DNA of 62,867 nucleotides, counting the filler, from Aduncisulcus paluster (lineage: Eukaryota), in assembly GCA_024181965.1 (NCBI GenBank). It is 5 parts of 5 records of this genome, joined end to end, with 100 filler letters (N's around TTAATTAATTAA, not from the genome) between each part and the next. Parts side by side here need not be neighbours in the genome. Positions count along the whole stretch, not along the records: positions 19,108 to 29,083 come from BQXS01010851.1; 4 more parts are not named here. The stretch is one strand, 5' to 3'. A model generated the notes under the pieces. The model saw only the letters and a program-made list of their open reading frames with translations, was not told where the DNA came from and made no database searches. Position numbers and translations under genes: made by a program. Shown here one piece after another: positions 9,001-55,706 of this stretch (positions are counted from its first letter, which is position 1; each line of letters begins with the position of its first letter).

Positions 9001-9927
9001 GAAAATTGCGGGGTTTTCACTTTCATTGATGATAATTCAAGAAGTTGTACATATCCGCTTAATGATCGACTGACAATTGCTTTTACGATGGGTGTATACA
9101 CAGCTGTGACTTGGAAAATGTCACACAAATTCTCCTTCCCAATGTGCTCATTTCTTGTCATGTCTTTAAGATATATGCTCCGGGCTATAACGTTCTGTGA
9201 ACACAAAAGGCTGAAAGATTTTAAATTCTTGGAGCACATTAAAAATTTGGATCCACCCACCAAGATTGTGCATGATTTCGTTGAATTCGCTCCATATTCT
9301 TTCGATCCGTCATGCAAAGGAATGGCTCACTTTGTTCGATCCCATCAAGAAGCAAAACAAATGGGAATGGAATGGCCAGATTCGCTACGTCAAAATAACA
9401 CTGATCACATTACTCCAATTTCGACAGAAATCGAAGATATGCACGATTATAAGACTTTTATTATGTATAATTTGTGCCGCAAAATATTAAAAGCTCCCAA
9501 AACAATCTGTGCGTTTGCATTAGGATTCGCCACTTCCCTGCCTATTTCATCTGCCTTCTTGGATATTCCAAATCCGAAGTTTATTCTTGCACTGAAACCC
9601 TCCATTGAAGTTCTGAGAGCAGATATTATAAGACTTGTAAGAAATCCAAACAGGGTTCCATTGATGGAAATGTTTGAAGATCATGTGTTTACTCTCACTC
9701 TTGAGAAAGCTATTGAATTTGTTGAAAAATTCTTCAGATTTGGTTCTTCTGCACCTCGAATGAAATTGACCATTGATGATAAACTCCAGGAACACCACAA
9801 ACTTCCCACAGCCTCGACATGCAGTGGTTATATTCATGTTCACCCGGATTGGGATCCAAAAACAATGTTCGAAAAGTTCCAAAGTGTCTTCAAATTAGGG
9901 GCTCATATCACCTTTGGATTTGTTTGA
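1..9927 (+). CDS. Giant HECT-type E3 ubiquitin ligase (>=3289 aa; probably 5'-partial)
   Basis: C-terminal HECT motifs: VSFEGMIAQDAGGVFREF, catalytic LPTASTC and terminal TFGFV*. The frame is open from base 1 to the ATG at 58, so the true start may lie outside the window. No domain recognised in the N-terminal ~2900 aa. Confidence 0.85.
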   Translation, partial: PYFQKSASSHKTWNLFISTMSNVVVNLIVKSYPSPQKLIMDILTSFVVGCNPKECPSQLLKGKIPCVMPFGLVLLQNLREQIMLRYFMNRDLVMPFEIGMFLVDSELYLVPTADYSHPPPFPSSSSFTDVEITFVSSLKTTKIPSHITASCRSLSRRFDMINEACDKSELTSYLLKDLINGKYHMVASFLSVYLTMIDQSFISAEKVKKILNEFIDQRFTKKSHPVAEQYVMKAFFSYSCERMFVDPLIWEKNITSSTSSMSRLWADYDHEDVDDCVKYHSLAGVFTTLNRFQYYQIDPFECANELNSSASDKEDFFSRMQHVAECDVQIHQTGKKSIKKVKPKHSIPLLCSLLCLGYKPKFEKGRKNGIQPKYCPYISLNKKEYHRRHVDHFYLSAFSSSRHSNPLKVPYYQMPLMYSQLQKCSSHVAPWSCLCFVIQLYVGLLFLNSRPNLDSDKSDPMIFQSNRGLHSAINSSFGRAQTHSTSLNDAALVVASSFLPIVDHYISSSVLGITFNKTSNPFIFQTLRLCSTVLDVFPSNLLRSPISHTILSKIDGYSRFYEEKMFNKMLIVPSFMSCVIMHQGIESAQNQFARSYGGQTQSLERMKDTLSCLLTPSFLWRIINHHIFPKFIDTASQNYSNPLHEDVIAFKTSVLSFLMPSDISKVMWILDPLFAPYSGASILFQELFIKKLYPHLTRENGKVIVDRISAGIWDPYVSNMFLTHYPQIFDIETLYSLGKSGLFDPFVILSGMFSIYSISKCTTLLMNAIIVYYSPTRAEVPLFDCYAVQLWEQIVCFKFHFGYKKSYISDDCAMPLLLLSYLHHWTSLSDKEPDQIIDPLIQDECNWNNMIPPHVIVALSSQTMIEKSRILVVNQYLRYILTKAVLSQDINENDLICLESLLIWQQTKPNAIPSTMANLQNKTIRMILSLFRDGVSQNPASAMHHEDSVKYVRFTRRLLMNRILSIFTDESEISTRLVKTCMTHLVHSCTYGVLSDINPQSQNYSELSNSFQSFVTSKVPAVVVYDTIEDFKSKRDLFEMWFSLYLLFVCCHTDAGKQISIESTGTNQPYLALFEQEKFFSLWTHNVLESSSLSQSVILFLDTIERKFLVSSPSIQVREEGEDSVSISPFGAHLFSEIYADILFKSGIHGLQSASILSVMFSAFHEHLQIYPEFLNIFNSGGIMGFLMDSQYSSMLKDLICAYMRIGRTQKRCMGSPNSEDWSKSDTGGSWDEIHHHLMNPVLNKLWRHFHTSFMLIHRSSKYITTNNPQYFSSPLNMMLCSTRHCLMIEPTNGCQREIPLLFFRNLLDVVLFQTIHKKYKCNVYASASWNVPLFDWKHAGGFIHFGPLYYIITMFVFPLFSGRKRRIISGIDELMYIWWTGRSLMFESEMAKSVEKRIAYDMANIGNPHPDSHENEAISAIHPADSLLFAISNIRSIPQMVPHIFLFCCSINRNQIDEKSLIILNSLVPLMFTLPRELTAVITTLLIRFETELKSFPWNFISLLQETKALMAKKEFSGGKIPKELISEVILAVKKNISSLLKAFGSSWSLFPSHCCCQFIASMNTNTSFDIVTFGQYLILMIYKFEEKFDQSKLDNSYYILDFLRNPLSAYGNYTRGCRILPTFASYSHFIIDNFEDTHQITVNIDAKFFPRSIYRNMEIIRAIYCLSKRTLFAPDSKLSIVDRDGSYFQCIYNPVIERRPLFSENENISPELSYLNPFFLIIENNMSTIGSSDSSSGSVEEYMYYINTLFRGNDILIISLSLLIGIIHSFQTPEILKIVKREGMIGALNANRQIRELLRLSLKVILDENLKYKYSDLFWNSSDKSSFENILRLLSDPVVCFLSRHVYALIEKEDFTKYSTGRGIFIGRLKYCLRFIHNVGLSEHSFSPVLRSIWNEFFRYYSKYNFILTDCKDPSMLVPNLYRFYTLEQMLTNESCWNFLEMLYYFNFQKHCIPKLQAIKDRKKIWDKELVSQFALMLDWCKASKTDELFSFLESVKADISKGIYMWKHCKFDRIPSFKESEDLYVKFRDNKKQYQGALKLFFDIGLFRISELKDPLIQTRIHTLNSIVTSLTGSSFVDDPLCVIKFDKTTNMYLLLDSLRNFSNSNSNLNSLVFLNDLHRCGSKKLFFIQSFVNDTCPVALDSFVDDIMQESIDQPFPWERFGEVIKAIPEEFKFDKKTVHLSTQNVLDLISYSRQTDAVFLCAMYMKCILWELSHLINEGLCHSPADVSEDNHDPDYFISTSFKTIISSVNFFQSFEGSVAEYYGKKLNIFNSQVKHIVQNILTRHLNDPNYLLSMVQLWSGNFKQCTDSIVSIGCQIPYISLMKCFSLNFHGYAALKFCLEHTLLRVFNGDSSTSLQERNMLCDLNREKEYISREYGFDVWRVIFESSTIPHVVERLSAEIAKVQEPIEKYVLIEKLGYMYPFISNINDVSNRPIVDFLLFCKCWKYVAHMYRDATIENLFTLIIVEKDRKHESDEAKSNNPQQIQEQIDSVDTVHAKLSSDFPYLSRYGSLSIFIALAIQHNLTIPSALSDYLLPQFPLSSFSLPDASFAFLNTFSFPFNSLPFISAVFSSHPSLSTMYRVEVYLSGVFIIPLNWSIVKRILHYTHQKPLKGPIECIPSEGQSAISQRQGIIIHSLNEAKTRSSKQYLKKGSGWATKKRRGEDKRDEFVKSNPFQKKGPTYYSPNIIPAQRLVSRFFLLHALQEKNILCVFSSKAYFWKNYVSSFSLAPASDSKSSEIMPSPLSSSVDSENPENTQDRGESEEMVKVQIRFRSIFSHIPSIIHNLPESQAQIHLPFPLYEYPEEMVSKYPEALPTGSKPIPCVLCVSPVGALATIRHSSTSYSPLDIFVSILNNFMVPREDLAISRAMLSDPIRSSSCRSRRSLYPDAVMIRKPLVAISLTDIHPQLKLYSLLTPAFVRSIEVGERIFRHIPSRLSSRVKFEDCLDLGILRAIKTRNKIHSSVSFEGMIAQDAGGVFREFVGRVIEGGLSRICEENCGVFTFIDDNSRSCTYPLNDRLTIAFTMGVYTAVTWKMSHKFSFPMCSFLVMSLRYMLRAITFCEHKRLKDFKFLEHIKNLDPPTKIVHDFVEFAPYSFDPSCKGMAHFVRSHQEAKQMGMEWPDSLRQNNTDHITPISTEIEDMHDYKTFIMYNLCRKILKAPKTICAFALGFATSLPISSAFLDIPNPKFILALKPSIEVLRADIIRLVRNPNRVPLMEMFEDHVFTLTLEKAIEFVEKFFRFGSSAPRMKLTIDDKLQEHHKLPTASTCSGYIHVHPDWDPKTMFEKFQSVFKLGAHITFGFV

Positions 9928-10186: not shown

Positions 10187-11887
10187 ATGTCTGAGATAAC
10201 TGACGTTATTAAAATCCTTCAACAGGAACAATCAGATGAAGTATGTTCTTTTTTGTTTTATTACGTTTTTAGTCTTGATCTTTATTTATGCATTTTCTTA
10301 ATATGAATGTAGGTGATAAAAGAAGCAATTAAAATATTATCTTGGTGCACTGGATCACTTGAAAAGGTTCAAGAATTGCGTAGATGCAATATTTTGTCCA
10401 TTATCTCTCCATTTGTTTCCAGGACTTCAGTTGCGACAGAAGTATTAGAATGTATCGATATTCTTACCTCTTCAGATGATATTATTCTCAAACAATCGTA
10501 TGGAAGAGGATTGCTCGAGAAACCTGAGATACAAAGCCTTCCCGTCTTTACCATCATCAATCATTTATTAGTCAATTTAAAAGCTGGTTTTATTGTTGCC
10601 AAGAAATCTGCCACTCCCTGTGAAGAAGGCGATCTTCTCTCTGGTGCCCAATTTCTTCCTGTAAAGCTTTCTGGATCAGCCATTGTCTGTGCTGGAATTC
10701 TTGCCAATATTGCAACCGATAAATTAGGCGCAATGGCTATTGTAGACTGCTGTAAACATATGGAGGTCCCAAAGAAAAAGAGCAAAAGTAGTCCCTCAAA
10801 AAAGAAAGGTAAAAACTCCAAGAAATCCGCTCCCACCGTGCACAATTTCAGTGATGAATGTAATAGTGTTGTTTGTGAGTTATTACAACATCTCATCTTG
10901 TTTATTTGGCGTGGTAGAGATTCTGAAGTGTGTTTCCCTCTCTGTCGTTTATTGCAAAACCTCTCTACCCATATTGAGGTTCAAAATATCCTCATTTCCC
11001 ATTCCATTTCTCCTCTTATTGCCCCATATATCCCTCCATTCCTTCATAAAAGGGCTTTGATTGGTTTGGTTGCCCTAAGTGTTCTTGCCAAAGTGATTGG
11101 TGCTTTGAAGATGACCATGGTTGGCAAAGATGGAATGTTATACAAAGAAGAAGATCGTGAGGCATTTGTTAACATGAATCTTGGAGTAATTAGGAACTGC
11201 TGTTTCCAGTTCACAGATGATGTCGATTCGTTACCACTTTTGATGCCTATTTCTGATAGAGCTGTGAAACACTCCTGTTCTTCAGATCTTACCGTCATTG
11301 AAGAGAAGGATGTCCTCCGTCTCCTTGTTCACGATATCTATCTCCCTCCTTCTCCTTCTCGGAAGAAGAAATATTCACATCTCAAAGTATACCCTCTCAA
11401 TCTCTCTGCTTTGATAGCTATCCTTATTCCACCAAACACTCCAACATCTACTGACTCGTCAAAGGTCGGTTCAGGCATAGGTATCAAGCGTTTAAGGGAG
11501 CACGAGGTCGCCTTGGTTCCAGGTTGGACTCGTGTCCTCTTTTCTGCTGGATCTGATCATTCTTGGGAACCCAATGGAACGAACAGAATTATGTTGGCAC
11601 AAATACTCCATATGCTAATGTTGACGCCCGCAGCAAAGCAGGTTTGTGCCGATTTTGGATATTATTATATTCTTCGTAGTTATCACGCGTATATATGTGA
11701 TGTTCTGGAACTCGAAGCAAAAGAGGAAGGGAAGGAAGACGGCGAAGAAGTGCAAGTGGCCTTAGAAATTATCGAAAGAATATTGGAAATGCAAGAAAAG
11801 CTAAGATCTGAAAGAGAAAAGGAAATGGAGGAGGCTAAAATAGAAGAAGAGGGAATAGAAGAGTTAGATTTCGATGAATTGGACTGA
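10187..11887 (+). CDS. HGH1: HGH1/FAM203-like eEF2 chaperone, 2 exons (10187-10240, 10313-11887)
   Basis: Motifs GVIRNCCF and IMLAQILHMLMLT..YYILRSYH plus an acidic tail match HGH1. Exon 1 (MSEITDVIKILQQEQSDE) joins in phase 0 through a GTATGT..TAG intron. Confidence 0.75.
10241..10312 (+). other. Spliceosomal intron (72 nt, phase 0)
   Basis: GTATGT donor, T-rich body, TAG acceptor; removal links ATG 10187 to ORF 10313 in frame. Confidence 0.85.
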
Positions 11888-19585: not shown

Positions 19586-21145
19586 CTATTCTGCATGGAT
19601 TGCCCATTCAAGGGTGTAAGAACCATCTTGATCGATCCTCTCAAATCCATGTGATCCGAATCCATCTCTCATTGCCTGAATGAAAGAGATGGATTCCATT
19701 CTCTCTTTACACATCTGGGTGATATAATTCATCGTGCTACTAAGAACATGGCAGGGAATTCCAGCTTGCATGAAGTTGTAGACTAAATCCTGCAATTGAA
19801 GCATTCTCACCTTGTCAAATGCAATCTTACGGAATCTTGGAGATGAAGCCCACCACGTCTCTCCCTCGCATTCCTCAAGAGGGAGAGAAAGAGTAGATTC
19901 AATGGTAGTTCTCGTGAACCCACTTTTCGGCTTCACATAAGACTCTTGGTGAGTGAATGTGAGGGTAGTATCCGGTGCAGAACCATACGTATCCTCAGTT
20001 TCTTCAAACTCACGGAGCAGAGGCATCCGAATAATACATCCTCCTTGCCAAACTCGAGTACATTGCTTGATATCAATATCCCATGAATATTTCTTAGAGG
20101 CAGCAAATATGAGAGAAAGACCCTGAGAAAATGCCTGTCGAATAGCAATTGCAAGGGCTCCATATGTTCGATTCATCAATCCTTCAGCCTGTGGTTTGTT
20201 CCGCATTCCACTGATGGTGAGAGCCTTGGAGAAAGTACATCGAGTAGCAGTACGAGCACTCATAGCTCGTTCCTCAAAAGCTGCCTGAATAGAAGGCACA
20301 GGATATCCGAGTTCAAGAGCGGCCTGACATGTCCATAATCCAGTTCCCTTATGACCAGCGACATCACGAATCCTATCAACAACCAAGGGATGCCCTGTCC
20401 CAAGCTCCCTCTTCCGGACAACATGTCTCATAAGCTCAAGTAAATACCCACCAAGATCTTGATGCTCCACAAGAGAATCCGAAGCAACGGCCAAACCACG
20501 ATCACCCACCACCGATCTCAAAAGGTTAAAAACTTCCGCAATCATCCCCATAATAGCATACTCTATACCATTGTGAACCATTTTAACAAAATGTCCAGCT
20601 CCATTGGGTCCAAGTCTTGAGACGCAGGGACGCCCATGGTAATCCCTGGCAGCAGCTTTCTCGAGGATCTCATGAGTCCATTGCCACGCCCGATCTGATC
20701 CTCCAAACATCAAAGATGGACCATTTAATGCCCCATCTTTTCCACCAGATATTCCAAGACCGATAAACTCAACACCTTTCTCGGCATACTTTTCACTACG
20801 AGCCATGGTATCCTTATAAAAGCTATTTCCACCATCAATAATGGCTAAATTATCTCCTTCAAGGCGTTTGTGAACTTCAAGAACAAGTTCATCACTCACC
20901 AAATCAACAGCAGCCCCAGCACTCAACATGAGAAACACAACCTTATTGGTGGGTAATTTACATAGAACATCTTTAATTGAAGTAGCTTTCGTGAATTTAC
21001 CTTCATGACTATAGCGACGCAGGAAATTATCAGTTTTTGAATGAGTTCGATTGTATACAGTAACGTTATAGCCTTTCCGTGCGAGATTCCGTGCCAAAGC
21101 ACTTCCCATGACACCCAAACCAATAACTCCAACAGATGTTACCAT
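19586..21145 (-). CDS. gnd: 6-phosphogluconate dehydrogenase, decarboxylating
   Basis: GVIGLGVMG Rossmann motif, YNRT, IDGGNS, ISGG, catalytic HFVKMVHNGIEY, KGTGLWT, GGCIIR, QAMRDGFGSH. Likely ATG at 21145. Confidence 0.97.
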   Translation of the reverse strand: MVTSVGVIGLGVMGSALARNLARKGYNVTVYNRTHSKTDNFLRRYSHEGKFTKATSIKDVLCKLPTNKVVFLMLSAGAAVDLVSDELVLEVHKRLEGDNLAIIDGGNSFYKDTMARSEKYAEKGVEFIGLGISGGKDGALNGPSLMFGGSDRAWQWTHEILEKAAARDYHGRPCVSRLGPNGAGHFVKMVHNGIEYAIMGMIAEVFNLLRSVVGDRGLAVASDSLVEHQDLGGYLLELMRHVVRKRELGTGHPLVVDRIRDVAGHKGTGLWTCQAALELGYPVPSIQAAFEERAMSARTATRCTFSKALTISGMRNKPQAEGLMNRTYGALAIAIRQAFSQGLSLIFAASKKYSWDIDIKQCTRVWQGGCIIRMPLLREFEETEDTYGSAPDTTLTFTHQESYVKPKSGFTRTTIESTLSLPLEECEGETWWASSPRFRKIAFDKVRMLQLQDLVYNFMQAGIPCHVLSSTMNYITQMCKERMESISFIQAMRDGFGSHGFERIDQDGSYTLEWAIHAE

Positions 21146-21596
21146 TGCTAATCGAAAAACAACAAAACTAATGAGAAGATTTCTTATCACAATTATGACT
21201 AAACTGTTGAGTAGAATTTGAGAAATGAAGGCACAGGAAGCAAAATAGAGAAAGAAATAAATATATTTCGCATAACAATTGTTAAAAATATGAAATTATA
21301 TTCCTCATTAGTATCACAACTGCAGATATGAGAAAGGTCCTATTTCAGTTGTAATATCGTCGAAAACAAAACAACAACATTAAATATTCTTTTAAAAACG
21401 AAAAATAAAAGTCATATACATAAAAGCCATATCTTGATTGAGCCAAATAAAGGAGCTGAAAAAATATTATCCTTATGGCGAATATCAATTGACTTACAAA
21501 ATAGATAACTTAAAATTATGAATAAAAACAATGAAAAAATTAATTTGGTATAATAATTAAAAAATTATAATTGGAAATTATAAAGCAAAAAAATTG

Positions 21597-21602
21597 AAAA
21601 AA
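21597..21602 (-). terminator. Pol III oligo-T terminator of the SRP RNA
   Basis: T6 on the minus strand just after the terminal helix. Confidence 0.6.
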
Positions 21603-21782
21603 GAAGTGTCCATCTGCCGTTGTTTCACCGTCCCACTACAAATCTGTGGCGCAGCATATTCCCTGCTCCCGAACGGGCCTGAGGCGGTACCTCCACTTCA
21701 ATCGAACCCAAGCAATAGACTTCTCTGAAGCTCGTGAACAAACCAAAATCTAAGCAGGATGAAACCAACATATGGCTGGACA
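21601..21782 (-). ncRNA. SRP (7SL) RNA, compact form
   Basis: Minus strand contains the helix-8 SRP54-binding motif CAGG-CCC-GUUC-GGG-AGCAG (about 21663-21681) and UGUAGUGGGA, which resembles the 3' helix-5 strand of eukaryotic 7SL. Long 5'/3' pairing: GUCCA/UGGAC, GCC/GGC, GUUUCA/UGAAAC, UCCUGCU/AGUGGGA, UGGU/GCCA. It ends in a T6 run. Confidence 0.85.
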
Positions 21783-21794
21783 AGAACATTTATC

Positions 21795-21841
21795 TTTATA
21801 TTAATATATATGGAATAATGAAATCGGCATAAATCAGCTAT
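21795..21841 (-). promoter_or_regulatory. Upstream element ATAGCTGATTTATG (21841-21828) plus TATA-like box for the SRP RNA
   Basis: 12/14 identical to the element upstream of tRNA-Sec. TATATATTAATATAA begins about 29 nt upstream of the inferred 5' end. Confidence 0.55.
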
Positions 21842-21997
21842 ACATGATAGAAGCACTTTAGTCAATACATCTCCAAGCTCAAAAAATGCATAAAAAATAG
21901 ATTAAACGTTATATCTCTATAAAAAAACACTTCATTATAAATAAATTTTTACAATTGGTTAATAAAAATGATGTTTGCTAGTCTACATTTATCCTTC

Positions 21998-22011
21998 ATA
22001 GCCGATTTACG
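21998..22011 (+). promoter_or_regulatory. Upstream element ATAGCCGATTTACG for tRNA-Sec
   Basis: Starts 59 nt before tRNA nucleotide 1; the mirrored copy sits about 59-60 nt before the SRP RNA 5' end. Confidence 0.55.
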
Positions 22012-22056
22012 GGAACAATTGATCCATTAGATTCTCATCAACCCCTAGAATGGGTT

Positions 22057-22145
22057 GTGGAGTTGAGCGCTAATGGTTTAGCGGATGGGTTTCAGCCCCA
22101 TTGCTCGGCTTTCGAGAGAGGTTCGATTCCTCCTACTCCACGCCA
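22057..22145 (+). tRNA. tRNA-Sec (anticodon UCA), eukaryal/archaeal 9/4 fold
   Basis: Acceptor GTGGAGTTG/CTACTCCAC (9 bp with a U.U pair), 6-bp D stem CGCTAA/TTAGCG with TGGT loop, 6-bp anticodon stem GATGGG/CCCATT with loop TT-TCA-GC, variable arm CTCG/CGAG, 4-bp T stem GAGG-TTCGATT-CCTC, G73 at 22142, CCA at 22143-22145, T5 at 22159-22163. Confidence 0.93.
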
Positions 22146-22809
22146 TTTCTCAATATTATTTTTCTTTATAAGGTTCTTTTTTGATATTAATTTGGTATTC
22201 AACCACATCAAGAAGATTTTGCCCCGACTATCTCAATAGAATTGTTCATCAAGTTTCATTGGAGTCACCTTTCCTTTTTTTGCCCAAATCAAAAATAATA
22301 TCTCCTTTTCGATGATATATCATTGATTAAATCGCCATATTATTCCCAATTATCACTCAAAAATATAGATTTTGTGTGTATTCAACCGGTGAAGAGATTG
22401 CATACGTAATTGAAGGTGTTTGCAATTTATTAACATATTTTCTTTCAAAATATTGTTTATAAGTAGAAAATCCTTTCAAATTTCCCCATAAATATGTTAC
22501 CAACAAATTATTAAACGATTTATTATTGTGGGTTTAACATTGGCACTCATATTATGCCAATCTCAATTTAGGAAATATAAATCAACATATCTTTAGTGGT
22601 ATTTACTTTTTTATTGTTGCTGTTGGATCTTCATTTCAGTTGTTTGTCAATGATTGTTTGACAATTTTGACATCCAATCCACCTTCTTTTTTCGTTTTTT
22701 GTCATCTATTCTGATACCTCCCTTCATTTTTAGTTTCTTGTTTTATTAATATTTTCATTATTTTAGTTTCTATTTAACCTCTTTTTGTGATTATTCGTTT
22801 TAAACAACA

Positions 22810-23922
22810 ATGGTTCATATTTTGATTACAGGTGGTGCCGGATTTATCGGATCTCATTGCGTGGAGGAATGTATTGAACGTGGAATACCGTGCACTGTTA
22901 TTGATATTGATTGTTCACCCTCGCGACGCATTAGTCATCCTCATGTCGCGTATGTCGAAGGTGATATTACAAACCCCGAAACTTTTAAAAAAATTGAAGA
23001 GTCTCCAACTCATATCATTCACTTAGCGGCAGCAATTTCAGTTACTGAATCAATGAGACTCCCAACCAAATATCGACAAACCAATGTTGAGGGTTCCAAA
23101 CGAGTATATGAGTTCGGTGCTGCATGCAAATGTCATCGAATCGTAAGTGCTTCAACAGCCGCTGTGTATGGAAATCCAAAGGAAATTCCCGTCAAAGAAG
23201 ATACTCTCCTCTCCCCTCTTTCTCCATATGCTGAAACCAAGCTTGAAATGGAAAAAATCGGCCGTTCTCTCGCGTGTAAAAAACAAGAGGATGTCCCAGG
23301 CATGTTTTCATATGCTGATGAGTCAGGAAGTTCAAGTTGGACTGAATCCTCTAGCGCCATTTCTGACAGTGACACTCCCGCACCCAGAGAAGACAAATGC
23401 CCTCATGCTGCCGAGCAGAAGGATCGTCCAAAGGTTTCGTCGATCCAACCATTTCCTCCCTTACATTTCCTTCGTTTCTTTAACGTATATGGACCTCGCC
23501 AGGATCCATCATCTCCATACACCGGTGTTATATCTACATTTGCTGCAAGTGGTCAAACAGGGAAGAATCTCATTATTTATGGAGATGGAACGCAGACTCG
23601 TGATTTTGTGTTCGTAAAAGATGTCGTAAGTGGAATTTTCCATCTGTTATTATCTCCTGTTTTTGATGAAACATCTTCTCTTGTTTTTAATGTCGGTACG
23701 GGACGTGGAATCTCCATTCTTGAATTGGCTCATACAGTTCTGAGGCTTGTGAAGTCTCCGAAATCCAAAATAATTCATTCCGAAGCAAGACCCGGAGATA
23801 TCAAACACTCATGTGCAAATATTAGTTCTTTCAAAGATAATGGTTGGAAACCCAAGATATCCTTTGAGGATGGTCTAAAAATGACTCTTAGTTGGATTGA
23901 ACATGAATATAAATGTAAATAA
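22810..23922 (+). CDS. Extended-SDR UDP-glucose/UDP-GlcNAc 4-epimerase-like protein
   Basis: TGGAGFIG, HLAA, SASTAAVYG, catalytic YAETK, LRFFNVYGPRQDP, GDGTQTRDFVFVKDV, RPGDIKHS. Confidence 0.9.
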   Translation: MVHILITGGAGFIGSHCVEECIERGIPCTVIDIDCSPSRRISHPHVAYVEGDITNPETFKKIEESPTHIIHLAAAISVTESMRLPTKYRQTNVEGSKRVYEFGAACKCHRIVSASTAAVYGNPKEIPVKEDTLLSPLSPYAETKLEMEKIGRSLACKKQEDVPGMFSYADESGSSSWTESSSAISDSDTPAPREDKCPHAAEQKDRPKVSSIQPFPPLHFLRFFNVYGPRQDPSSPYTGVISTFAASGQTGKNLIIYGDGTQTRDFVFVKDVVSGIFHLLLSPVFDETSSLVFNVGTGRGISILELAHTVLRLVKSPKSKIIHSEARPGDIKHSCANISSFKDNGWKPKISFEDGLKMTLSWIEHEYKCK

Positions 23923-24044
23923 TAAACCAATTTTAAATTCAACCAATACTAGTCATAATGAGCGTTTCCCTCGCGATTTATTTCTCTATTGACTCCTAGG
24001 GAAATCCAATCAACAAAATCTGCCGATTTTGCAGAGGTCAAAGT

Positions 24045-25265
24045 ATGATTCCATTAAAATCATTACGTTCAACCCTCAAAAATCGCGAAAAATATCTCAA
24101 ATCCTTACCAAGTGCTGAAATAGAAAAGATAGAACGCACAAAGAAATCTATCGAGAATGTTCAAAAAAATATCGAAGCAAGAAGGTTAGATAGAGCAATA
24201 GCTGAATATATCAAACAAAAGGAAGATAATCGTAAAAAGTATATGAAACAAACAAAATCAAGATTAAAATCACTCCCAAAAGATGTTTCTGAAAAGAAAA
24301 AGCAGCAATTGGTTGATAGTATTAAAGAAGAACAAATGTATATTCGTAATTATCCTATATTAGAGCAATTTATTCCCTTTCAAGATCCAGAAAAGAAGGA
24401 TCTTGTAAAACAAGTCCTATCAAAGATAAAAGAAATCGTATCTGATAAAGATTATCAATATGATGTAGAACATGCTGTTTCTGAACTTCGTAAGAGAAAA
24501 GAAATAATCCAATCATCGATATTGAAGAATAGCAAGAAAGCCCCCAAAACACCCAGGAAAACCATATACCCAACTGAAATTCCCAAATTTTCTGCGTATG
24601 AAATTCCTTCTATTCTTGAATTTGTTGATTCTGATGGAAGTATCCCCAATTTCAAGTATGGCCGTCTTCTTCATGTTGATTTCATTACAATTACACCTTC
24701 CTCAGAGGATTCCTCTTCTTATGATACTTTTATTGCCCAAATGCTCGATAAAGAATCGAAGCAATCGTTGTCTCGTCGCGCCATTCAAAAGTCTGTCGAA
24801 AGAAAGAAAGTGAGGATTCAAAATGAGAAAGAACAAAAAATCCGTCAAGCAGAATTATCCATTGTGAAGGATGTTGTGTTAGATGGTCTCGAAGATGTTG
24901 CTGAGGAGAAATTTGAGAGGATTCCAATTTCTAAGAGCAAGTCAAAATCCCATAAGAAACAGAGCAAAGAAGAGGAAGAGGAAGAGGAAGAACCACATGC
25001 CCCTTCTCCAGAGGTAGAAGAGAGAGAGATTACACAGATTCAAGGTCATGATGCCTTTGATGACATTTTTGAAGATGTTGCTGAGGAGAAAACTGCTGAT
25101 GATTGTGTTGTAAAGTTGAAAGGAGAACGGTTGAAATTAACAGACGTTGATCTCGATGATGATAGAGATATTGATGTCTTCAGAAAGCGTCGTGGCTTAA
25201 AAACTAGCGATAAATTCGGCAAGAATTGGGTTGTTAGAAAGAAGAGGAATTTCGACAGGAAATAA
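24045..25265 (+). CDS. Lys/Glu-rich nuclear protein, possibly Efg1-like rRNA-processing factor
   Basis: Basic helical N-terminus with YIRNYPILEQFIPF, resembling the Efg1 Y-x-x-Y-Y-P-x-x-E-K-Y-I-S-L motif from memory; charged tail. Confidence 0.45.
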   Translation: MIPLKSLRSTLKNREKYLKSLPSAEIEKIERTKKSIENVQKNIEARRLDRAIAEYIKQKEDNRKKYMKQTKSRLKSLPKDVSEKKKQQLVDSIKEEQMYIRNYPILEQFIPFQDPEKKDLVKQVLSKIKEIVSDKDYQYDVEHAVSELRKRKEIIQSSILKNSKKAPKTPRKTIYPTEIPKFSAYEIPSILEFVDSDGSIPNFKYGRLLHVDFITITPSSEDSSSYDTFIAQMLDKESKQSLSRRAIQKSVERKKVRIQNEKEQKIRQAELSIVKDVVLDGLEDVAEEKFERIPISKSKSKSHKKQSKEEEEEEEEPHAPSPEVEEREITQIQGHDAFDDIFEDVAEEKTADDCVVKLKGERLKLTDVDLDDDRDIDVFRKRRGLKTSDKFGKNWVVRKKRNFDRK

Positions 25266-25528: not shown

Positions 25529-28500
25529 ATGTCTGATCTTGATATGGATAGATATTTGCAATTTATGCTTCTAAAAGCATCCAGTTCGAAGAATTGGACC
25601 AAATTATCAAAGCAGCAAGTTTTGGCTTTGGAACGAATTAAAGCAAAAATTGGAGATGAATTATTTCAAATATATGAAAATATGGCTCAAGATACCAGGA
25701 AAAGATTAAAATCCAGTGAAAGATCAAATAGAAAAAGTTATGTCGATGGTGAAGAGAAAGCAATGATTAAAATAGAGCCCAAAATATTCTCTGCTTTGAA
25801 AATTTATGATACATCGGTTAAATCTACACCATCCAAAGAAAAGGCTCCGCATCCTATTCTTCCAATCAAGCCCCTTCCCACCATTTCTCAGCCCAAGGAG
25901 ATTTTAGAGACTTCTACAAAGAAACCAATTCAAGATAAATATGATCATACAGATAAAACAATACTTTCCGGTAAAATCCAAGATAGCAACCCCACTTCGA
26001 AAGATACTCATATTTCTTTATCTCCCACCGTTAAACCTGAAAAATCCAAGCCACAAGAGACTAAAAAGCCCGACATAGCCAAAGAGAAGTCAGATCAGCA
26101 ATCCAACGTGACTCCTCAGAATATACCTGATCAAATTGATGAAGAACATGAGCAGGATTCATCTCCCTCTTCAAAGGATGCATCCTCAGTCTTTTCTCAC
26201 ACAAAAGCTCCAACTAAACTCAAAGATTCCACCCCATTGACCCTCGTTCACCATGCTCAGGATAAATCAGCGTCCACGACAATACCTACTGTTGAATCCT
26301 CCTCTTCTCTCCCTATTCAGCCCAATTTCCCATCCTTTTCGACCGATCTTTCCCTTCTCCTCCCCTCCCTTTCCCAGATCCATGGTTCTATCCTTCCTGC
26401 TGCCACTCGTCGTGTCTCCGTCCTTCTCTCCCCTCTCTCGGGCCCTCCAATCTCTCACATAGTTGCCAATTCGCTATCCAAGGCACCTGCGTTGTTCTCC
26501 ATCATTGAGTTTCAGAGGCAAGTTATCCTTGAGACAGTTGCACAACATATCGAGCTGGAACGATCCTTCGAGGAGTATAAGGCCAAAAGCACGCGGGACT
26601 GTTCAACTCTCAGGGTGGCCATTCGCAAAGCTGTTCTTGATCGAGGCAAGATCACTCAGCAACGAGAAGAGCTCAAGGAGAAGATACGAGAGCTACAGAC
26701 AGAGATCTGGAAAGGACAAGAAGAAAATAGGAAAGCAAAGGAAGAGAAAGAGATAGAGAAACAAATTAGTGCACGTAAGGAGAGGGAAATTGATATCCTC
26801 CGGCGCAGTATTGGTCGTGAACGTATGTCGGCCATTGAGTCGATGAGAGAAGACACGGCTTTCCTTGACCCCGTATCGTATGGTTCTCTTTATGCTTCCG
26901 GCAATAATAAGGGAATTTCTGCACTTGGTTCATCCTCTTCTTCGCAAGGATCAGGGCCATTGAGTCCCCGTTATAATAATCCTTTCGGTAGATCTTCAAG
27001 TTCATCCTCAGGAGTTTCTCATCACGTGGGTGAGTCATCCTCTAATTCTAAAAATAGACAAATATCATCTCTTGAGAAACAAGTTGAAATGTTGAAGAAA
27101 CTTGTTGGAGAAAAAGAGGAAGATCTTGAAATTGAGCGTCAGAAACGGATAGATTTGGATGAGAAATGCAATGATCTTGAGCGTTCGTTAGAAATGTATG
27201 ATATGACTCATCGAGGACGGATGTGGGATTCATTTTCTTCCCATGCTCATCCACTCCAAGGGAGTCCCAGATCATTGTTAGGTCGTTTCTCCAATCTGTC
27301 GAATTCGTCTACATCCCCTTCCTCCTCTTCACATATTGCTTCATTTGAATCTTTCCCCATGTCTCCCTCTGCCTCCTCTCTTCTCTCTCGTTGCCTAGGT
27401 GAGAACCAGAAGATGAGAAAAACTATTGCTGAATTGAAGAGATCTAACACTATCCTGTCAAAACAACACCATTCCAAACCGATTTCTAAAAAAGGGCCCA
27501 GAGTTTCTTATTCCACACTGTTGAGAGGTCTCGGAACTATCCTTCTCTCCCCATCTTCCTCATCCTCCCTTCCTTCCCTTCACAAGTCAACAGTTGAGCT
27601 CTCTCGTGTGTTTAAAAAAGAGGTGAAGCGAGTATACGAATCGGTTGCAGTCGGAATTGCTCAGTTTGTGTGCAATGTTGGTTCTATTTGTGGATGTGAG
27701 AAAGAAGTCAAACTTGCTGCGTTATTGTGTGATAATCCCTCTAGATCCCATCAATCGACTTCAGCCAGATCCAAGAATGCAGGAAAGAAACAACAGTCGG
27801 GCGGTATTGTGAAGAACACAAATAGAGGTCACAGTATGAGTATGAGTGTTCAACACACTGGTTCTAAAAATAGATCTTCAACAACACCTAAAATTAGATC
27901 AACCCCACCCCTTGGTTTCGATAACCAATTTCTTGAAAAACGAAGCCCTATGCCGTTTTCTACTCCCCATAGAATTTCCCTTGTGTCCATCGGGAAGGAA
28001 AGAGAAGAGAAAAAGAGAAGAGAAGAAGAACAGGAAAGAAGAAAGAAAGAAGAAGAAGAAGAAAGAAGAAGAAGAGAAGAAGAAAGGAAAAGGAGAGAAG
28101 AGAAAGAAGAACAGGAAAGAAAGAAAGAAGAAGAAAGAATGAGAAAAGAGAAAGAAGAAGAAGAAGAAGAAGAACACAACTATCAAAATGACTTTGAAGA
28201 TATAGTTGCCACAACCATCCAAAATACTTCCTTCACAAAGCCTACCATTACAGCAACCCTTACCACCCACCAAGATGATAGAACCATTGTTAATGATGAT
28301 AGAACCATTGTTAATGATGATAAACAATCCCTCGGAGATAATACAGAGAGTGAATACAGTGAAGAGGATGAACGAGAGTCTAATTCTCGAAAGAAAGCCG
28401 ATAGTGATGGATTCATATCTCCATCCGAATCAGACTCTCTTTCTGAGCGTCTTACTCCTATGCTATTGACCGTGACAACTCATAGAGTATCAATTCCAAG

Positions 28501-29083
28501 TACTTCTTTGAGTACTGATAGCCCCGAGTCCAAACACAATGAAAAGTCTATATCCCACTTCCCCATATCTCCAACCATTATCCCGTCTTCCCAGAGATCC
28601 TTGACCACCGGTAGAAGTGACTCTATGACTCTTCATCAACATCATTCGCTCTCAAGAAAGCTTATAAACGTTCCAAGGACTTCCATCGATATGGGAGAAG
28701 ATGTTCGCGTGAATTCACATTCCTCGGTTGTTTCTAAACCTTTGGGGGGTTCAGGATTGTCCTCGCAGAGAACAGTAACAGGAATACATGACAAATCTCT
28801 CTCAGTTGTCGAAAATACCTCTCGAATGCCAAGAAATTCGATTGATATTGGAGAGAATGTTCATATTCACTTCAAATCTCGACCTAAGACTTCATTGGGC
28901 CATGTTTCTGATACATCTCTCTCCTTTTCTGACTCCAATACAGTACAATATTCCCATCCCAGGGATTCAACTACCCTGGATAAGTCCCTTGAGGAGTTTC
29001 ATGGTGTAGATATTGACCAACTAGACAAGGGAGTATTACAACAGGTGGAGCTTAGTACAGTACAGTCCCTCACAAATAAGCAC
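25529..29083 (+). CDS. Large Ser-rich/coiled-coil hypothetical protein, 3'-truncated by gap
   Basis: >1180-codon ORF with coiled coils, Ser-rich tracts and an E/R/K-rich helix, running into Ns. Confidence 0.75.
27994..28173 (+). repeat. Purine-rich (GAA/AGA) tract encoding an E/R/K charged single-alpha-helix-like segment
   Basis: About 180 nt almost entirely A/G; translates as KEREEKKRREEEQERRKKEEEEERRRREEE... Confidence 0.7.
28274..28321 (+). repeat. 21-nt in-frame tandem repeat (DDRTIVN x2)
   Basis: GATGATAGAACCATTGTTAAT twice, followed by GATGAT. Confidence 0.85.
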
Positions 29084-29183
29084 NNNNNNNNNNNNNNNNN
29101 NNNNNNNNNNNNNNNNNNNNNNNNNNNTTAATTAATTAANNNNNNNNNNNNNNNNNNNNNNNNNNNNNNNNNNNNNNNNNNNN
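29084..29183. other. Assembly spacer N44-TTAATTAATTAA-N44
   Basis: Six-frame stop linker inside Ns. Confidence 0.95.
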
Positions 29184-29728
29184 ATCTTGAAAGTCCATGG
29201 GCTACACATAGGACCCATAATATCAAATTTAGGATTACCAACCTCATCGATCATCTGGAACTCACGGTTGAAAATAGACCACAATTGTTTGATCTCACCA
29301 ATCTTGGCACCGTGAGAATCAAAAGCCTCAAGAAGTTGGAGCCAACAGCACCAACAGCAAGATGGGAAACAACGGAAAGGACGGTTAAACCGACAGATTT
29401 CTTGTCCAGTCATCATGACAACTTTAGCTTCGAAAGGACGAGAAGGACCACAACAGAATCTACAGCAGGCGTTTGACTCTTCCTGAAGCTTTAAAACCTT
29501 CCTTCCATCAGTGGCAACAACTTCATATTCTTGATTAGCATCACAACCACACATAATTTCCATAATACTTTTCTGTTGCATAACTCCGAGAGCGGGGTAA
29601 TATTGGAGGTACTGGAGGGGATCGGTAATAGAAGCAGGACTAGGAATAGGGGCGGGCATTGGGATTTGGGCGGGCATTCCACCAGCCATGGGCATAGGCT
29701 GACCCATTGGCATTCCGGGTTGCATCAT
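29184..29728 (-). CDS. Phospholipid scramblase family protein, 3'-truncated by gap
   Basis: Pro/Met-rich N-terminus, EESNACCRFCCGPSRPF, Cys-rich RPFRCFPSCCWCCWLQ, IGEIKQLWS, FDIMGP. Confidence 0.9.
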
Positions 29729-30066
29729 TCGGGGCTGAGAGCTTTTCCAGCCTCAAATTGCGTTATATCCGATTTAAATTGGCTGAAAAAATCTCATTTC
29801 TCTATTTTGAGCTTTCAACATCAATACAGTGCTTCCTTGAACTGTGTAAGGGGGCACACAAGATCAAATCGGCAGTGGAGCATTTTCATTAAAAATAAAG
29901 GTAATTCTTTAAATAATATTCACTAATTTAAAAATACTTTTTAATCAATTTATATTTTTCCCAATTATTATTGACAGACATATTGAGGAACTTTGGATTC
30001 TTCCAGAAATGCCCTCAGTTCTTATTTTCCCCGCAATATCCATCTTATTTAAATTTTTTTATTGTA

Positions 30067-32823
30067 ATGAGTTCAACTAGTACAACTATATTATCTTATC
30101 TCATTTCTGAATATAATCTAACAAAGAGGACTATTGCTCACGAAGCTAAAACCTCAGAAGATGTCTTATTCCTCATTAAAAGACTCCGAATATTGTTTAT
30201 TCAGAATATTTACTGTTTGACTTCCCTTTCTGCGACAGAAGAAACCCAAGTTTGGGAGATATGGCGATATCTTTCCTTTTCTCTATTTTTTCTTTCTAAA
30301 CTTCCAATGTTGAAGAAAGATGACAAAAAACTCAATGATTACTTTTGTTCTACATTTAAAGCTGAAATTGAATCAATTAAAACAGCCTCTTCCGCTAAAA
30401 AAGAAGAATTACAAAGATTCATTCGTGATTGTTGCATATTTTCCCAATATGCACCAATTTTAACGTGGGCAAAAGAGGATATTCAATTATTTAATTCGAT
30501 TAGCATCGAACATCCTGGTAAACCACTCCCCTATTTCAAGTCCAAACATTTGTCACGTTTGAAAGTGCCCCATTCAAAAATATCTCCCGAAGATTCACCA
30601 AAAATCGATGAAATTCTCAAGAATTGTGATGAAATTGGCCTGCCTCTCCATGTCTTTGTTCGTCGCCCTGTCGTATTTTCCTCGAAGTTGTGCCTCTTCG
30701 CTGAATTAATCCTATTTACTGATGAAATACCCAAACTCACGAATCCAGATGATATTATTATGTTCTTTAAGGCTTCCTTGTTGTCATCTCTTGCTATATC
30801 ATGGCTATTCAAAGGATTTCCACCATCTTACAGTTTTATTGATGCCTACTGTTCTTCCTATCGTTTCAACATGATCCCTTTGGATAATTCTATGGCCAGG
30901 AACTATTCAGATATCATTCTACATGACATATATTTTGAGAATATTGTCATTCCGTCATCAAAGTCTATTTTTGACTGGGTTAGAGATAGGTTTGCCACAA
31001 CTAAGGTTCCAAAGTTACAATATCTCTGTCTTTCCATTGATTTTCTCTCCTCTTCAATATCCACCCATTCTCCTAACCTCCTTATTATGGAGTATGTCTT
31101 CGGCCCAGGTCTCAAAGAACTTCCTTCCTCATCCATCGAGTATTTCCATCATATGTCTTCTTGCTATGACAAGGACAAGGACAGTAGCGAAAAAGACAAG
31201 GCTTCTTCAGACCGCATGGATGCCTGTCGTATTAGTTTACCCTCAACTTCTTCTGTAAATTTCGAGCTCTTCTCGTGTCTCTCTAGGATGGATTCATTCC
31301 TGACGTCTCCTTTTTCTTGTGAGGATCATGCAAGAATGGACGATCTCATTATGGATATCGAGTCCAAATACGCCCATCCTGCCCATCGAGACAGGGAAGA
31401 CAGTGAAGATTGTGAAGATGAAGCTAATCTCCTAGAAAGTCTCTTGAAGACCATCGGAGATAAGTCTAAGACCATTTCAACATTGGAGAGTCAGATTCAA
31501 ACGGCACAAGAAGCTCAAGATGCTCTGAAGATAGATATTTCAACCCTCCGAGAAGATTCCAAGACTTTGGAAGAAGAAAAGACAATGGTCATTGAGGATA
31601 AGCTGCGCTTTGAAAAAATGAAAAAAGACAGGAGTCAACAATTGAATCATGATCTCATTGAGATACTAACAAAGGACAAAATGCTTGGTATCCAGGCCAA
31701 AGTTGTCAAACATAATCGACGAGTGATTGCAGAAATCACCAAAGAGCAGGAAATACTGAAGCAGAACTGTGAAAAGCAGTCTAGAGAACTGAAGAAGAAG
31801 AAGAAAAGGAATCAAGAGCTTGTTCAGGCTCTACGAGACGCTGAGGAAGATGCAGCCAGAATCGGAAAGCTCTCGAAAAAAAAGAGAGAAGAGCATCTCA
31901 AGAAGATTCAAAATCTCAAAAAACAGTTGGATGACATGGGATTAGAGATTGCCAAAAAACAACGTGAACTCTCCAAAGCTAAGAAAGAGTCAGCCGCTGT
32001 AGTTAAAAAGCTCTCCTCTGTACAAGAATATTTCCCTTCAGATTGGTGTATTTATACAGGAATGTGTCTATCTGACCATCTGTCAAAGACTCCCTATTGT
32101 ATTCCTCTCGATTCATCCACACACAGTCTCTTTCAGAGAGCTATTGATGACTCCACTAGTCGACATTTCAAGGTCATATCTGTCGAAAGAATCGAGAATC
32201 CAGCTCTGTGGAGTGGATATGACAAGGCAAGGAAAACCATTCTGGAAATTAACCATGAATTGAAGACTTGGTTTGAGAAGATAAGGACGAGAATGGATGG
32301 AACGGATTTGGCTCAGCTTCTGGCAAAGAATTCCTCATCGCCCTCTGATATCTTATTCGACAGAAAAAACCTTCCATCAAGCAGCCTAGACCCCAAAACT
32401 GGTCTCGCTTGCGATTATCCTAAGCTCAGTTCTGATCCTTTCCACAATGAGAAGTACCTATGGTACAGCTCCAAAGATGTCTCTTCTCTGTGGAAAACAG
32501 GGATAGACACTCGATCAATCGAAGTTGGAACATTTGGACGTGGTATTCACACATTTGATGTATTTCATGAAGCAGATAAGTCGGCACCAGAATCCAGTCC
32601 AGGTGTATATACCGTTTTGCTTCTTCGTGTGTTGCTTGGACCCGCTGTGTACCACCAAACAAGCTCCAGCACACAGCGAAGACCCCCTAATCATCCTAAA
32701 GGAAATATGATTGCTGCTTCAAGTGTGTGTGGAAAGCTTACCGGCGGTGAGAATCAATATGTCGTATTTGAAACAACTTCTGTATATCCTCAGTATTATA
32801 TTAAGTATTCAAGAGGTAAATAA
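30067..32823 (+). CDS. Coiled-coil protein with C-terminal degenerate PARP catalytic-like domain
   Basis: ERIENPALW, NEKYLWYS, GIDTR, GTFGRGIH, LLRVLLG and QYVVFETTSVYPQYYIKY follow the PARP-fold motif order. First ATG at 30067. Confidence 0.8.
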   Translation: MSSTSTTILSYLISEYNLTKRTIAHEAKTSEDVLFLIKRLRILFIQNIYCLTSLSATEETQVWEIWRYLSFSLFFLSKLPMLKKDDKKLNDYFCSTFKAEIESIKTASSAKKEELQRFIRDCCIFSQYAPILTWAKEDIQLFNSISIEHPGKPLPYFKSKHLSRLKVPHSKISPEDSPKIDEILKNCDEIGLPLHVFVRRPVVFSSKLCLFAELILFTDEIPKLTNPDDIIMFFKASLLSSLAISWLFKGFPPSYSFIDAYCSSYRFNMIPLDNSMARNYSDIILHDIYFENIVIPSSKSIFDWVRDRFATTKVPKLQYLCLSIDFLSSSISTHSPNLLIMEYVFGPGLKELPSSSIEYFHHMSSCYDKDKDSSEKDKASSDRMDACRISLPSTSSVNFELFSCLSRMDSFLTSPFSCEDHARMDDLIMDIESKYAHPAHRDREDSEDCEDEANLLESLLKTIGDKSKTISTLESQIQTAQEAQDALKIDISTLREDSKTLEEEKTMVIEDKLRFEKMKKDRSQQLNHDLIEILTKDKMLGIQAKVVKHNRRVIAEITKEQEILKQNCEKQSRELKKKKKRNQELVQALRDAEEDAARIGKLSKKKREEHLKKIQNLKKQLDDMGLEIAKKQRELSKAKKESAAVVKKLSSVQEYFPSDWCIYTGMCLSDHLSKTPYCIPLDSSTHSLFQRAIDDSTSRHFKVISVERIENPALWSGYDKARKTILEINHELKTWFEKIRTRMDGTDLAQLLAKNSSSPSDILFDRKNLPSSSLDPKTGLACDYPKLSSDPFHNEKYLWYSSKDVSSLWKTGIDTRSIEVGTFGRGIHTFDVFHEADKSAPESSPGVYTVLLLRVLLGPAVYHQTSSSTQRRPPNHPKGNMIAASSVCGKLTGGENQYVVFETTSVYPQYYIKYSRGK

Positions 32824-54900: not shown

Positions 54901-55706
54901 GTCTGATTCAACTGTAAAATTGAGTTCAACATCGCGGACCGATGCAGTAGGTTTCCTTTCGAGAAACATGGGTAACTGTGTGGGTGGGTGTGATCGTATG
55001 TAGTATATATCATTTATATCAACATTGCCAATGTACAGAGACATTGAGAGGAGAGACAGAGAAAGCAAGGAATGGTCATATTCATACATAGAAGCAGAAA
55101 CGGGAGATGAACCGTTACTCATAGATGATTTCCTTCTTGAAATTGTTCTTCTTTGACTGTTATTGCTGTTATCTGTCATCACGGAAGCATCATAGAGGTT
55201 ATTTTGATGAGAAGATAGCGAATAGGAACCACTCAAACCTCGTCCACAGCTGAAACGAGAGTGTTTGGCATTCAAAATAGTACGACGTTTCCTTTCTTCC
55301 AGAAGTCGTTGACGGAGCTCAAGCTCTTCTTTCCTTCTTTGGTTGTACATAACAACATCAAGGGGCGATACAAATAGCCACCCATCTCCTTTCATTTCCC
55401 GACGAATCTTCTCCCAAGGCTCAGCTTCAACAAAACGTGCACTCACACTACCAACTGAGAAGGATATTGTTCTGGGTGAAGTGAAGACGGCAGAAAGATT
55501 CTGAGAGAAAGGAATGGCGTTGTTGTTCATAGCTCCAACCAGTTCTTTCCGTACACTCTGACCTCTGCTCTTCTTATGCTTAGTTTTGGAGGACACAACT
55601 GAACAACACAGAAGTCTATCATCGACATATATCGATACTCCAATGCCACGCTTCCGTTCAGAGCTACGTTTAAGAGTCACCGTGATAAGGTGAATTCCTG
55701 TAACAG
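42956..55706 (-). CDS. BEACH-WD40-FYVE protein (WDFY3/LvsA-like); one gene split into four ORFs by unmerged overlaps; 5' end in gap
   Basis: BEACH: WKNGLLTNFDYLSILNLCSGRSELDLTQYPVFPW, HYGTHYSS, DVKELIPEFFY, WIDLIFGFKQRG, FGLTPKQLF. WD-like repeats follow, then FYVE WISDDD..RRHHCRCCGYVFCSECS. Duplicated flanks at each 20-N gap join the ORFs. Confidence 0.9.

Follow-up and report, generated by a model that had tools for sequence, protein, structure and literature searches.

A putative SRP RNA gene of about 180 nt, apparently without an Alu 5′ domain, in an AT-rich protist genome

Results

Gene content of the window and placement of the host

The window, which is the whole stretch of 62,867 nucleotides that was analysed, is gene-dense, has a G+C content of 32–44% in 2-kb windows, and carries long ORFs under the standard genetic code. 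The ORFs end in TAA (15 of 23), TGA (6 of 23), or TAG (2 of 23), and the standard code means that the host is not a hexamitid diplomonad. The eukaryotic families found in the window are a polycystin channel, tubulin chaperone D, BEACH, FYVE, and scramblase. The best hit for TBCD has 39% identity over 36% of its length, and no close named relative was found for this protein. The 6PGD gene product is 71% identical to a protein of the fornicate Aduncisulcus paluster, and its further hits reach at most 39%. The A. paluster G+C content is 39.1% (PMC9933649). On the basis of this one protein, the host is tentatively placed as an AT-rich, gene-dense protist among the fornicate metamonads. The 6PGD gene itself (19586–21145, minus strand) is of bacterial type, and apart from Aduncisulcus the listed hits that bear an organism name are all bacterial. 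The listed hits span 34% to 39% identity, which suggests an old lateral transfer common to the two protists.

Two RNA genes lie next to each other and are divergently transcribed. The first is a tRNA-Sec gene on the plus strand (22057–22141) that scores 63 bits against an Rfam cut-off of 47 and is assigned the anticodon TCA by ARAGORN. Its presence indicates that the organism probably makes selenoproteins. Spironucleus makes selenoproteins and Giardia does not, according to the available part of PMC3916229. The second, 275 bases from the tRNA-Sec gene, is the minus-strand locus from about 21782 to 21599, which we identify as a predicted SRP (7SL) RNA gene of about 180 nt. It would encode a structured RNA of about 177 nt and a U tail (21599–21782).

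Covariance-model match at the locus

The preliminary description of this DNA had expected an SRP covariance model to match the locus, and a match was found, though under the gathering score. The Rfam covariance search aligned Protozoa_SRP (RF01856, clan CL00003) to 21608–21854 at 52.3 bits, with E values of 7.1e-10 for the 801 bases searched and 5.6e-08 for the whole window. At E ≤ 0.1 this was the sole SRP match in the whole window and the sole match of any kind besides the tRNA-Sec gene. The curated gathering score of Protozoa_SRP is 65 bits, which the locus does not reach; by Rfam's rule, it is a sub-threshold, divergent member of the family. The Rfam scan at curated thresholds returned the tRNA-Sec gene as its sole match and did not return the SRP gene. 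A score below the cut-off means that default Rfam annotation misses this gene, which is a practical point for the annotation of metamonad genomes.

When the gene was searched alone (21597–21782, 186 bases), it scored 50.2 bits over model positions 55–228 and was flagged as 5′-truncated. These positions of Protozoa_SRP comprise helix 5, helix 6, and helix 8, that is, helix 5 and the S domain. The alignment posterior is mostly 0.9–1.0 across helices 5, 6, and 8 and along the returning strand of helix 5 to the 3′ end.

Structure of the RNA

The RNA is divided into four segments on the minus strand. The 5′ strand of helix 5 (21742–21782, RNA positions 1–41) begins at the 5′ end with UGUCCAGCC. It is followed by helix 6 (21702–21741, RNA 42–81), with the apical loop GAAG at 21723–21720, and by helix 8 (21651–21696, RNA 87–132), with an AGG/AGCA internal loop and the apical loop GUUC at 21674–21671. 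The 3′ strand of helix 5 (21607–21650, RNA 133–176) ends in UGGACA. Helices 6 and 8 were delimited by the model alignment and the two strands of helix 5 by folding together with the model alignment.

From T at 21782, the minus strand reads TGTCCA to 21777. In the unconstrained minimum-energy fold, UGUCCA (21782–21777) pairs with UGGACA (21612–21607), and the next pairs inward are GCC (21776–21774) with GGC and GUUG with CAAC. The helix 5 pairing did not change when helices 6 and 8 were fixed to the covariance-model pairs, and the SRP fold did not change on addition of 100 upstream bases. The reported pairing of the 5′-terminal UGUCCAGCC with the bases just ahead of the T6 run was reproduced in both the free and the constrained folds. 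A long helix 5 of about 40 nt per strand, running from the S domain to where the 5′ and 3′ regions pair, is present in the free, constrained, and extended folds. The fold energy is near chance (z = −1.37; 22 of 200 shuffles were equally stable), and the evidence for SRP identity is the model match, not the fold energy. There is no covariation support for the terminal helix or the start, as the metagenome matches listed include no close RNA relative.

Standard base pairs fill 12 of the 18 model pairs in helix 6 and 11 of the 15 in helix 8. The GAAG apical loop of helix 6 fits the GNAR pattern, which is the SRP19 site in other eukaryotes. The conserved internal loop of helix 8, with AGG on the 5′ side and AGCA on the 3′ side, aligns letter for letter with a posterior of 0.98–1.0; the M domain of SRP54 has its site at this loop. 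At its apex, helix 8 has the loop GUUC and not GNRA. To our knowledge, a GNRA tip on helix 8 is near-universal in SRP RNA, and the SRP-like, hairpin-forming helix-8 classes among the metagenome matches listed all have G..A loops (GCAA, GUAA, GAAA, GUGA, GUCA, and GACA). The helix 8 tip contacts SRP19 and the receptor in other systems, and the GUUC loop suggests a possibly altered contact there. The same loop could also mark a divergent or decaying copy.

Ends, terminator, and upstream elements

The 5′ end is predicted to lie within about 5 nt of 21782 and the 3′ end inside the T6 run. UGGACA is followed by C21606, then UUC, then the T6 run (21602–21597), CAA, and a T7 run (21593–21587). T runs terminate RNA polymerase III, and the segment 21587–21602 has the form of a polymerase III-type terminator with a back-up. 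On the other side of the gene, the preliminary description had noted AT-rich DNA with a TATA-like box. This is confirmed by a G+C content of 26% over 118 bases and by the stretch TATATATTAATATAAAG at 21810–21794, a putative promoter element. The stretch lies 12 to 28 bases ahead of 21782, a distance consistent with transcription starting within a few bases of 21782.

The octamer GCCGATTT is a possible shared upstream element. It precedes both the SRP gene (21821–21828, minus strand) and the divergent tRNA-Sec gene (22001–22008, plus strand), each time on the strand of its own gene. Further copies are at 24022–24029 (plus), 29866–29873 (minus), 11648–11655 (plus), and 23255–23262 (minus). The six matches in the window compare with 1.41 expected, and none of 100 shuffles reached six. 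Four copies are upstream and on the strand of a gene, namely the SRP RNA gene, the tRNA-Sec gene, and the ORFs 24045–25265 and 29132–29728, and GCCGATTT may be a promoter element of this organism. The earlier claim that upstream-element spacing independently fixes the start was not reproduced. The sole shared element, GCCGATTT, begins 46 bases ahead of 21782 at the SRP gene, as against 56 bases ahead of the tRNA-Sec gene. Because the spacing differs by 10 bases and the octamer occurs at four other sites, it provides no independent evidence for the start and was rejected as a ruler.

Two public runs of one sample carry this stretch, neither of them recorded as RNA. One is a DNA run, which may be the source of the window itself, and the other is guessed to be RNA. 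The contigs listed from the guessed-RNA run cover 19664–21704, 21825–22234, and 22357–23909, with none over 21705–21824, but such contigs carry no information on starts, ends, or levels, and the gap proves nothing. The contig 19664–21704 runs from the 6PGD ORF across the spacer and both T runs into the SRP gene, of which it covers the 3′ 105 nt.

Analysis of the DNA upstream of helix 5

The DNA upstream of the gene bears on whether an Alu 5′ domain is present. A normal-length SRP RNA would start 50–100 nt further upstream, and 21783–21880 would then hold a very divergent Alu domain that the models do not see. The full glocal Protozoa_SRP alignment is consistent with such a domain in that it reaches 21854 and scores 2 bits above the truncated one. 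The DNA at 21880–21821 is also somewhat G+C-richer (30–45%) than its surroundings, and the Alu domain is described in the available part of PMC8137916 as the most variable part of protist SRP RNA. However, the 50.2 bits obtained with the gene alone show that the upstream DNA is worth about 2 bits. In the full alignment, model positions 1–54 fall on AT-rich DNA with a low posterior and a 21-base insertion, and the sole hairpin within this part contains four non-standard pairs.

Searched alone, the 274 bases between the gene and tRNA-Sec gave no match to an SRP-family (SRP-clan) model in Rfam at E ≤ 10. The four weak matches in the same scan were to one plastid intron motif and three snoRNA families. 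The 100 bases upstream of the gene fold at −12.8 kcal/mol (z = +0.85; 170 of 200 shuffles were equally stable), which is worse than the shuffle mean and shows no structure beyond that of shuffles. The UGUNR motif is absent from the 118 upstream bases, where the three UGU occurrences read UGUAU, UGUAU, and UGUUC. Base composition marks the same border. The G+C content is 51% in 21606–21782, 26% in the 118 upstream bases, and 15% downstream. It is 15–20% in 20-base windows from 21820 to 21781, steps up to 45% at 21780, and falls back to 15% at 21600, and the upstream step coincides exactly with the first paired base. A start further upstream would also place the TATA-like box within the RNA. We regard a hidden Alu domain in 21783–21880 as unlikely.

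Comparison with control SRP RNAs

A metagenome scan with a degenerate helix-8 motif provided the control set of at least 119 loci. The metagenome matches listed fall into 17 motif classes, with 80 of the 120 matches in one class, and they represent either SRP RNAs of other eukaryotes with a higher G+C content or coding DNA that fits the motif by chance. Twelve of the at least 119 loci, chosen to span the SRP-like motif classes, were run through Rfam. SRP matches were obtained in 11 of the 12, with 13 matches in total. Nine of the 13 matches span the whole model, with lengths of 272–299 nt for Plant_SRP and Metazoa_SRP and 234 nt for Protozoa_SRP. The Protozoa_SRP control (locus L117) covers all 228 model positions at 120 bits. 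One of the remaining matches is cut at the end of its locus, and partial matches account for the other three (those in L049 and L064 and one of the three in L007).

The nine full-length controls have 160–182 nt on the 5′ side of the helix-8 motif and 44–92 nt on the 3′ side, and each has the UGU turn motif in its first 30 nt. These controls show an Alu region, so the method detects one where it is present. The SRP gene described here has 94 nt 5′ of the motif and 53 nt 3′ of it, and it starts directly with helix 5. The RNA is 66–88 nt short on the 5′ side compared to the full-length controls. The eight Plant_SRP and Metazoa_SRP controls represent the canonical RNAs. The S domain, with helix 6 and the AGG/AGCA loop of helix 8, is common to them and the RNA described here, and so is helix 5. 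They measure 272–299 nt, of which 164–182 nt precede the motif, and their first 30 nt include a CUGUNR turn. The gene in the window differs from them in its 94 nt 5′ of the motif, in having no CUGUNR turn at the 5′ end, and in its GUUC rather than GNRA loop. The proposal of an SRP RNA of about 180 nt without an Alu domain is supported, with only model positions 55–228 matched and an upstream region free of SRP matches. The best reading of these sequence comparisons is a gene of about 180 nt from which the Alu 5′ domain appears to be absent.

The partial match in L049 is a separate observation. This metagenome contig carries a bacterial class A RNase P RNA (2–336, 304 bits) 22 bases from its SRP match (358–520), which covers only the S domain (Metazoa_SRP positions 93–255, 103 bits) and has a helix-6-like hairpin. 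This unexpected pairing could reflect a chimeric contig or an unusual SRP RNA.

Discussion

We assign a probability of roughly three in four to a nuclear SRP RNA gene of about 180 nt that consists of helix 5 and the S domain, is missing the whole Alu 5′ domain, and gives a particle without classical arrest. The model match, the anatomy of the RNA, and the lack of a recognizable Alu sequence upstream are observations, to which we add an inferred scheme for where the transcript starts and ends, which polymerase makes it, which proteins bind it, and how arrest is lost. Transcription would probably be carried out by RNA polymerase III, from about 21782, downstream of the TATA-like box, to the T6 run at 21602–21597. 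The RNA would form one rod, helix 5, whose own 5′ and 3′ ends pair to close it and which bears the S domain, and the missing Alu 5′ domain would correspond to helices 2–4 and the UGUNR turn. Because the features of helix 6 and helix 8 are intact, the S domain is predicted to assemble with SRP19 and SRP54 in the usual way, and the particle would then be expected to recognize signal peptides and dock to the receptor normally. With no Alu 5′ domain and a helix 5 of about 40 nt per strand, nothing would occupy the elongation-factor site of the ribosome, and targeting would proceed without classical elongation arrest.

The locus might instead be a 5′-truncated extra copy or a pseudogene, with a working, Alu-bearing SRP RNA gene elsewhere in the genome. 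A score under the family cut-off and a helix 8 loop that departs from GNRA are what such a copy could show. The pairing of the ends does not separate the two cases because it survives any cut just before helix 5, so that a copy truncated there still pairs its ends. However, the conserved features of the S domain are intact, namely the AGG/AGCA loop of helix 8, the GNAR loop of helix 6, and an unbroken helix 5, and the gene is flanked exactly at its borders by a TATA-like box and a double T-run terminator of its own. In addition, the available parts of PMC3916229 and PMC4040695 describe relatives in which the Alu domain and its proteins are absent. We judge a truncated copy to be improbable. 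Least probable of all is an Alu-less RNA complemented by a second, tRNA-like RNA that replaces the Alu domain in the trypanosomatid fashion. For trypanosomatids, the accessible text of PMC4231752 and PMC8137916 describes a 7SL RNA whose Alu 5′ region is truncated, a tRNA-like RNA beside it, and an absence of Alu-binding proteins. A tRNA-type gene is also near the SRP gene described here: the tRNA-Sec gene, 275 bases upstream and on the opposite strand, is likewise preceded by the GCCGATTT octamer. This gene, however, has the score of an ordinary tRNA-Sec (63 bits against 47, anticodon UCA) and needs no other role, and nothing alike is reported for diplomonads in the available part of PMC3916229.

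An SRP RNA gene without an Alu 5′ domain, the reading that we prefer, has precedents. Alu-less or Alu-reduced eukaryotic SRP RNAs are already known in diplomonads, microsporidia, and trypanosomatids. For the diplomonads Spironucleus salmonicida and Giardia intestinalis, the available part of PMC3916229, from 2014, states in one sentence based on unpublished results that the 7S RNA has no Alu domain. The same text reports that S. salmonicida lacks the two Alu-domain proteins and proposes that arrest was lost in diplomonads. Giardia has SRP19, SRP54, SRP68, and SRP72 and lacks SRP9 and SRP14 in the accessible part of PMC4040695. The main text of PMC3091692, the reference given for Giardia in PMC3916229, mentions neither SRP nor Alu. 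The diplomonad 7S RNAs, compared with ours by their description only, likewise lack the Alu domain and occur in genomes without SRP9 and SRP14. Diplomonads probably belong to the same wider lineage (Fornicata) as the organism in the window, judged from one protein, and S. salmonicida also has tRNA-Sec (PMC3916229, available part). Spironucleus differs in its genetic code from the organism here, which uses the standard code. In the literature searched, we found no description of the structure of a fornicate SRP RNA, and the Alu-less diplomonad SRP RNA appeared there only as the one sentence resting on unpublished results. A 2004 study by Rosenblad et al. (BMC Genomics 5:5) may contain such a description.

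The trypanosomatid 7SL RNA family, Protozoa_SRP, is the best-matching Rfam family, and its helix 5 and S domain (positions 55–228) align with our RNA. Trypanosomatids also lack the Alu-binding proteins (PMC4231752, available part). Their RNAs differ in keeping a truncated 5′ Alu region, model positions 1–54, which is unmatched in the gene described here. The Encephalitozoon SRP RNA has no canonical Alu domain, and although the yeast and human RNAs exceed it by about 60 nt, it is still longer than about 180 nt (PMC5499648, accessible part). Microsporidia are an unrelated lineage, and theirs is an independent reduction. In Dikaryan fungi, helices 3 and 4 are absent and UGUNR is retained (PMC4605306, available part). 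The SRP built on the small bacterial RNA works without elongation arrest (PMC8137916, accessible part), and targeting in Escherichia coli likewise proceeds without it. Bacterial 4.5S RNA likewise has no Alu domain, and it is a single rod that is closed by its 5′ and 3′ ends and carries helix 8. It has no helix 6, whereas the RNA described here has a helix 6 with a GNAR loop and a eukaryotic model as its best match. Unlike 4.5S RNA, the gene in the window sits among nuclear eukaryotic genes.

Elongation arrest by the Alu domain is regarded as a hallmark of the eukaryotic SRP. Lineages that lack it demonstrate that co-translational targeting does not require arrest, and the locus provides a concrete case for which coordinates, structure, and the surrounding promoter and terminator are annotated. 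The Alu-less condition of diplomonads probably extends to a fornicate relative that uses the standard code. If the placement near Aduncisulcus holds, then loss of the Alu domain predates the diplomonads. Somewhat short of even odds, in our estimate, is the full claim that this RNA of about 180 nt, with no Alu 5′ domain and a GUUC tip, is among the shortest nuclear SRP RNAs of any eukaryote and belongs to a standard-code fornicate that is not a diplomonad. If this is true, then loss of the Alu domain and of elongation arrest preceded the origin of diplomonads and took place in ancestors that were free-living, not through parasitism, and the helix 8 tip was remodelled as well.

The protein-coding part of the window offers further observations. 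One BEACH domain is split over the adjoining ORFs 45969–47396 and 43645–45885 on the minus strand, which come after a 2672-aa ORF (47512–55530). The segment 43645–55530 (minus strand) probably encodes one giant BEACH protein that is broken by an intron, a frameshift, or a sequencing error. Three plus-strand ORFs have no Pfam family: 58–9927 (3289 aa), 25529–29131 (1200 aa), and 30067–32823 (918 aa). The 1200-aa ORF has no homologue but itself among 5.8 billion proteins, which points to a very poorly sampled lineage.
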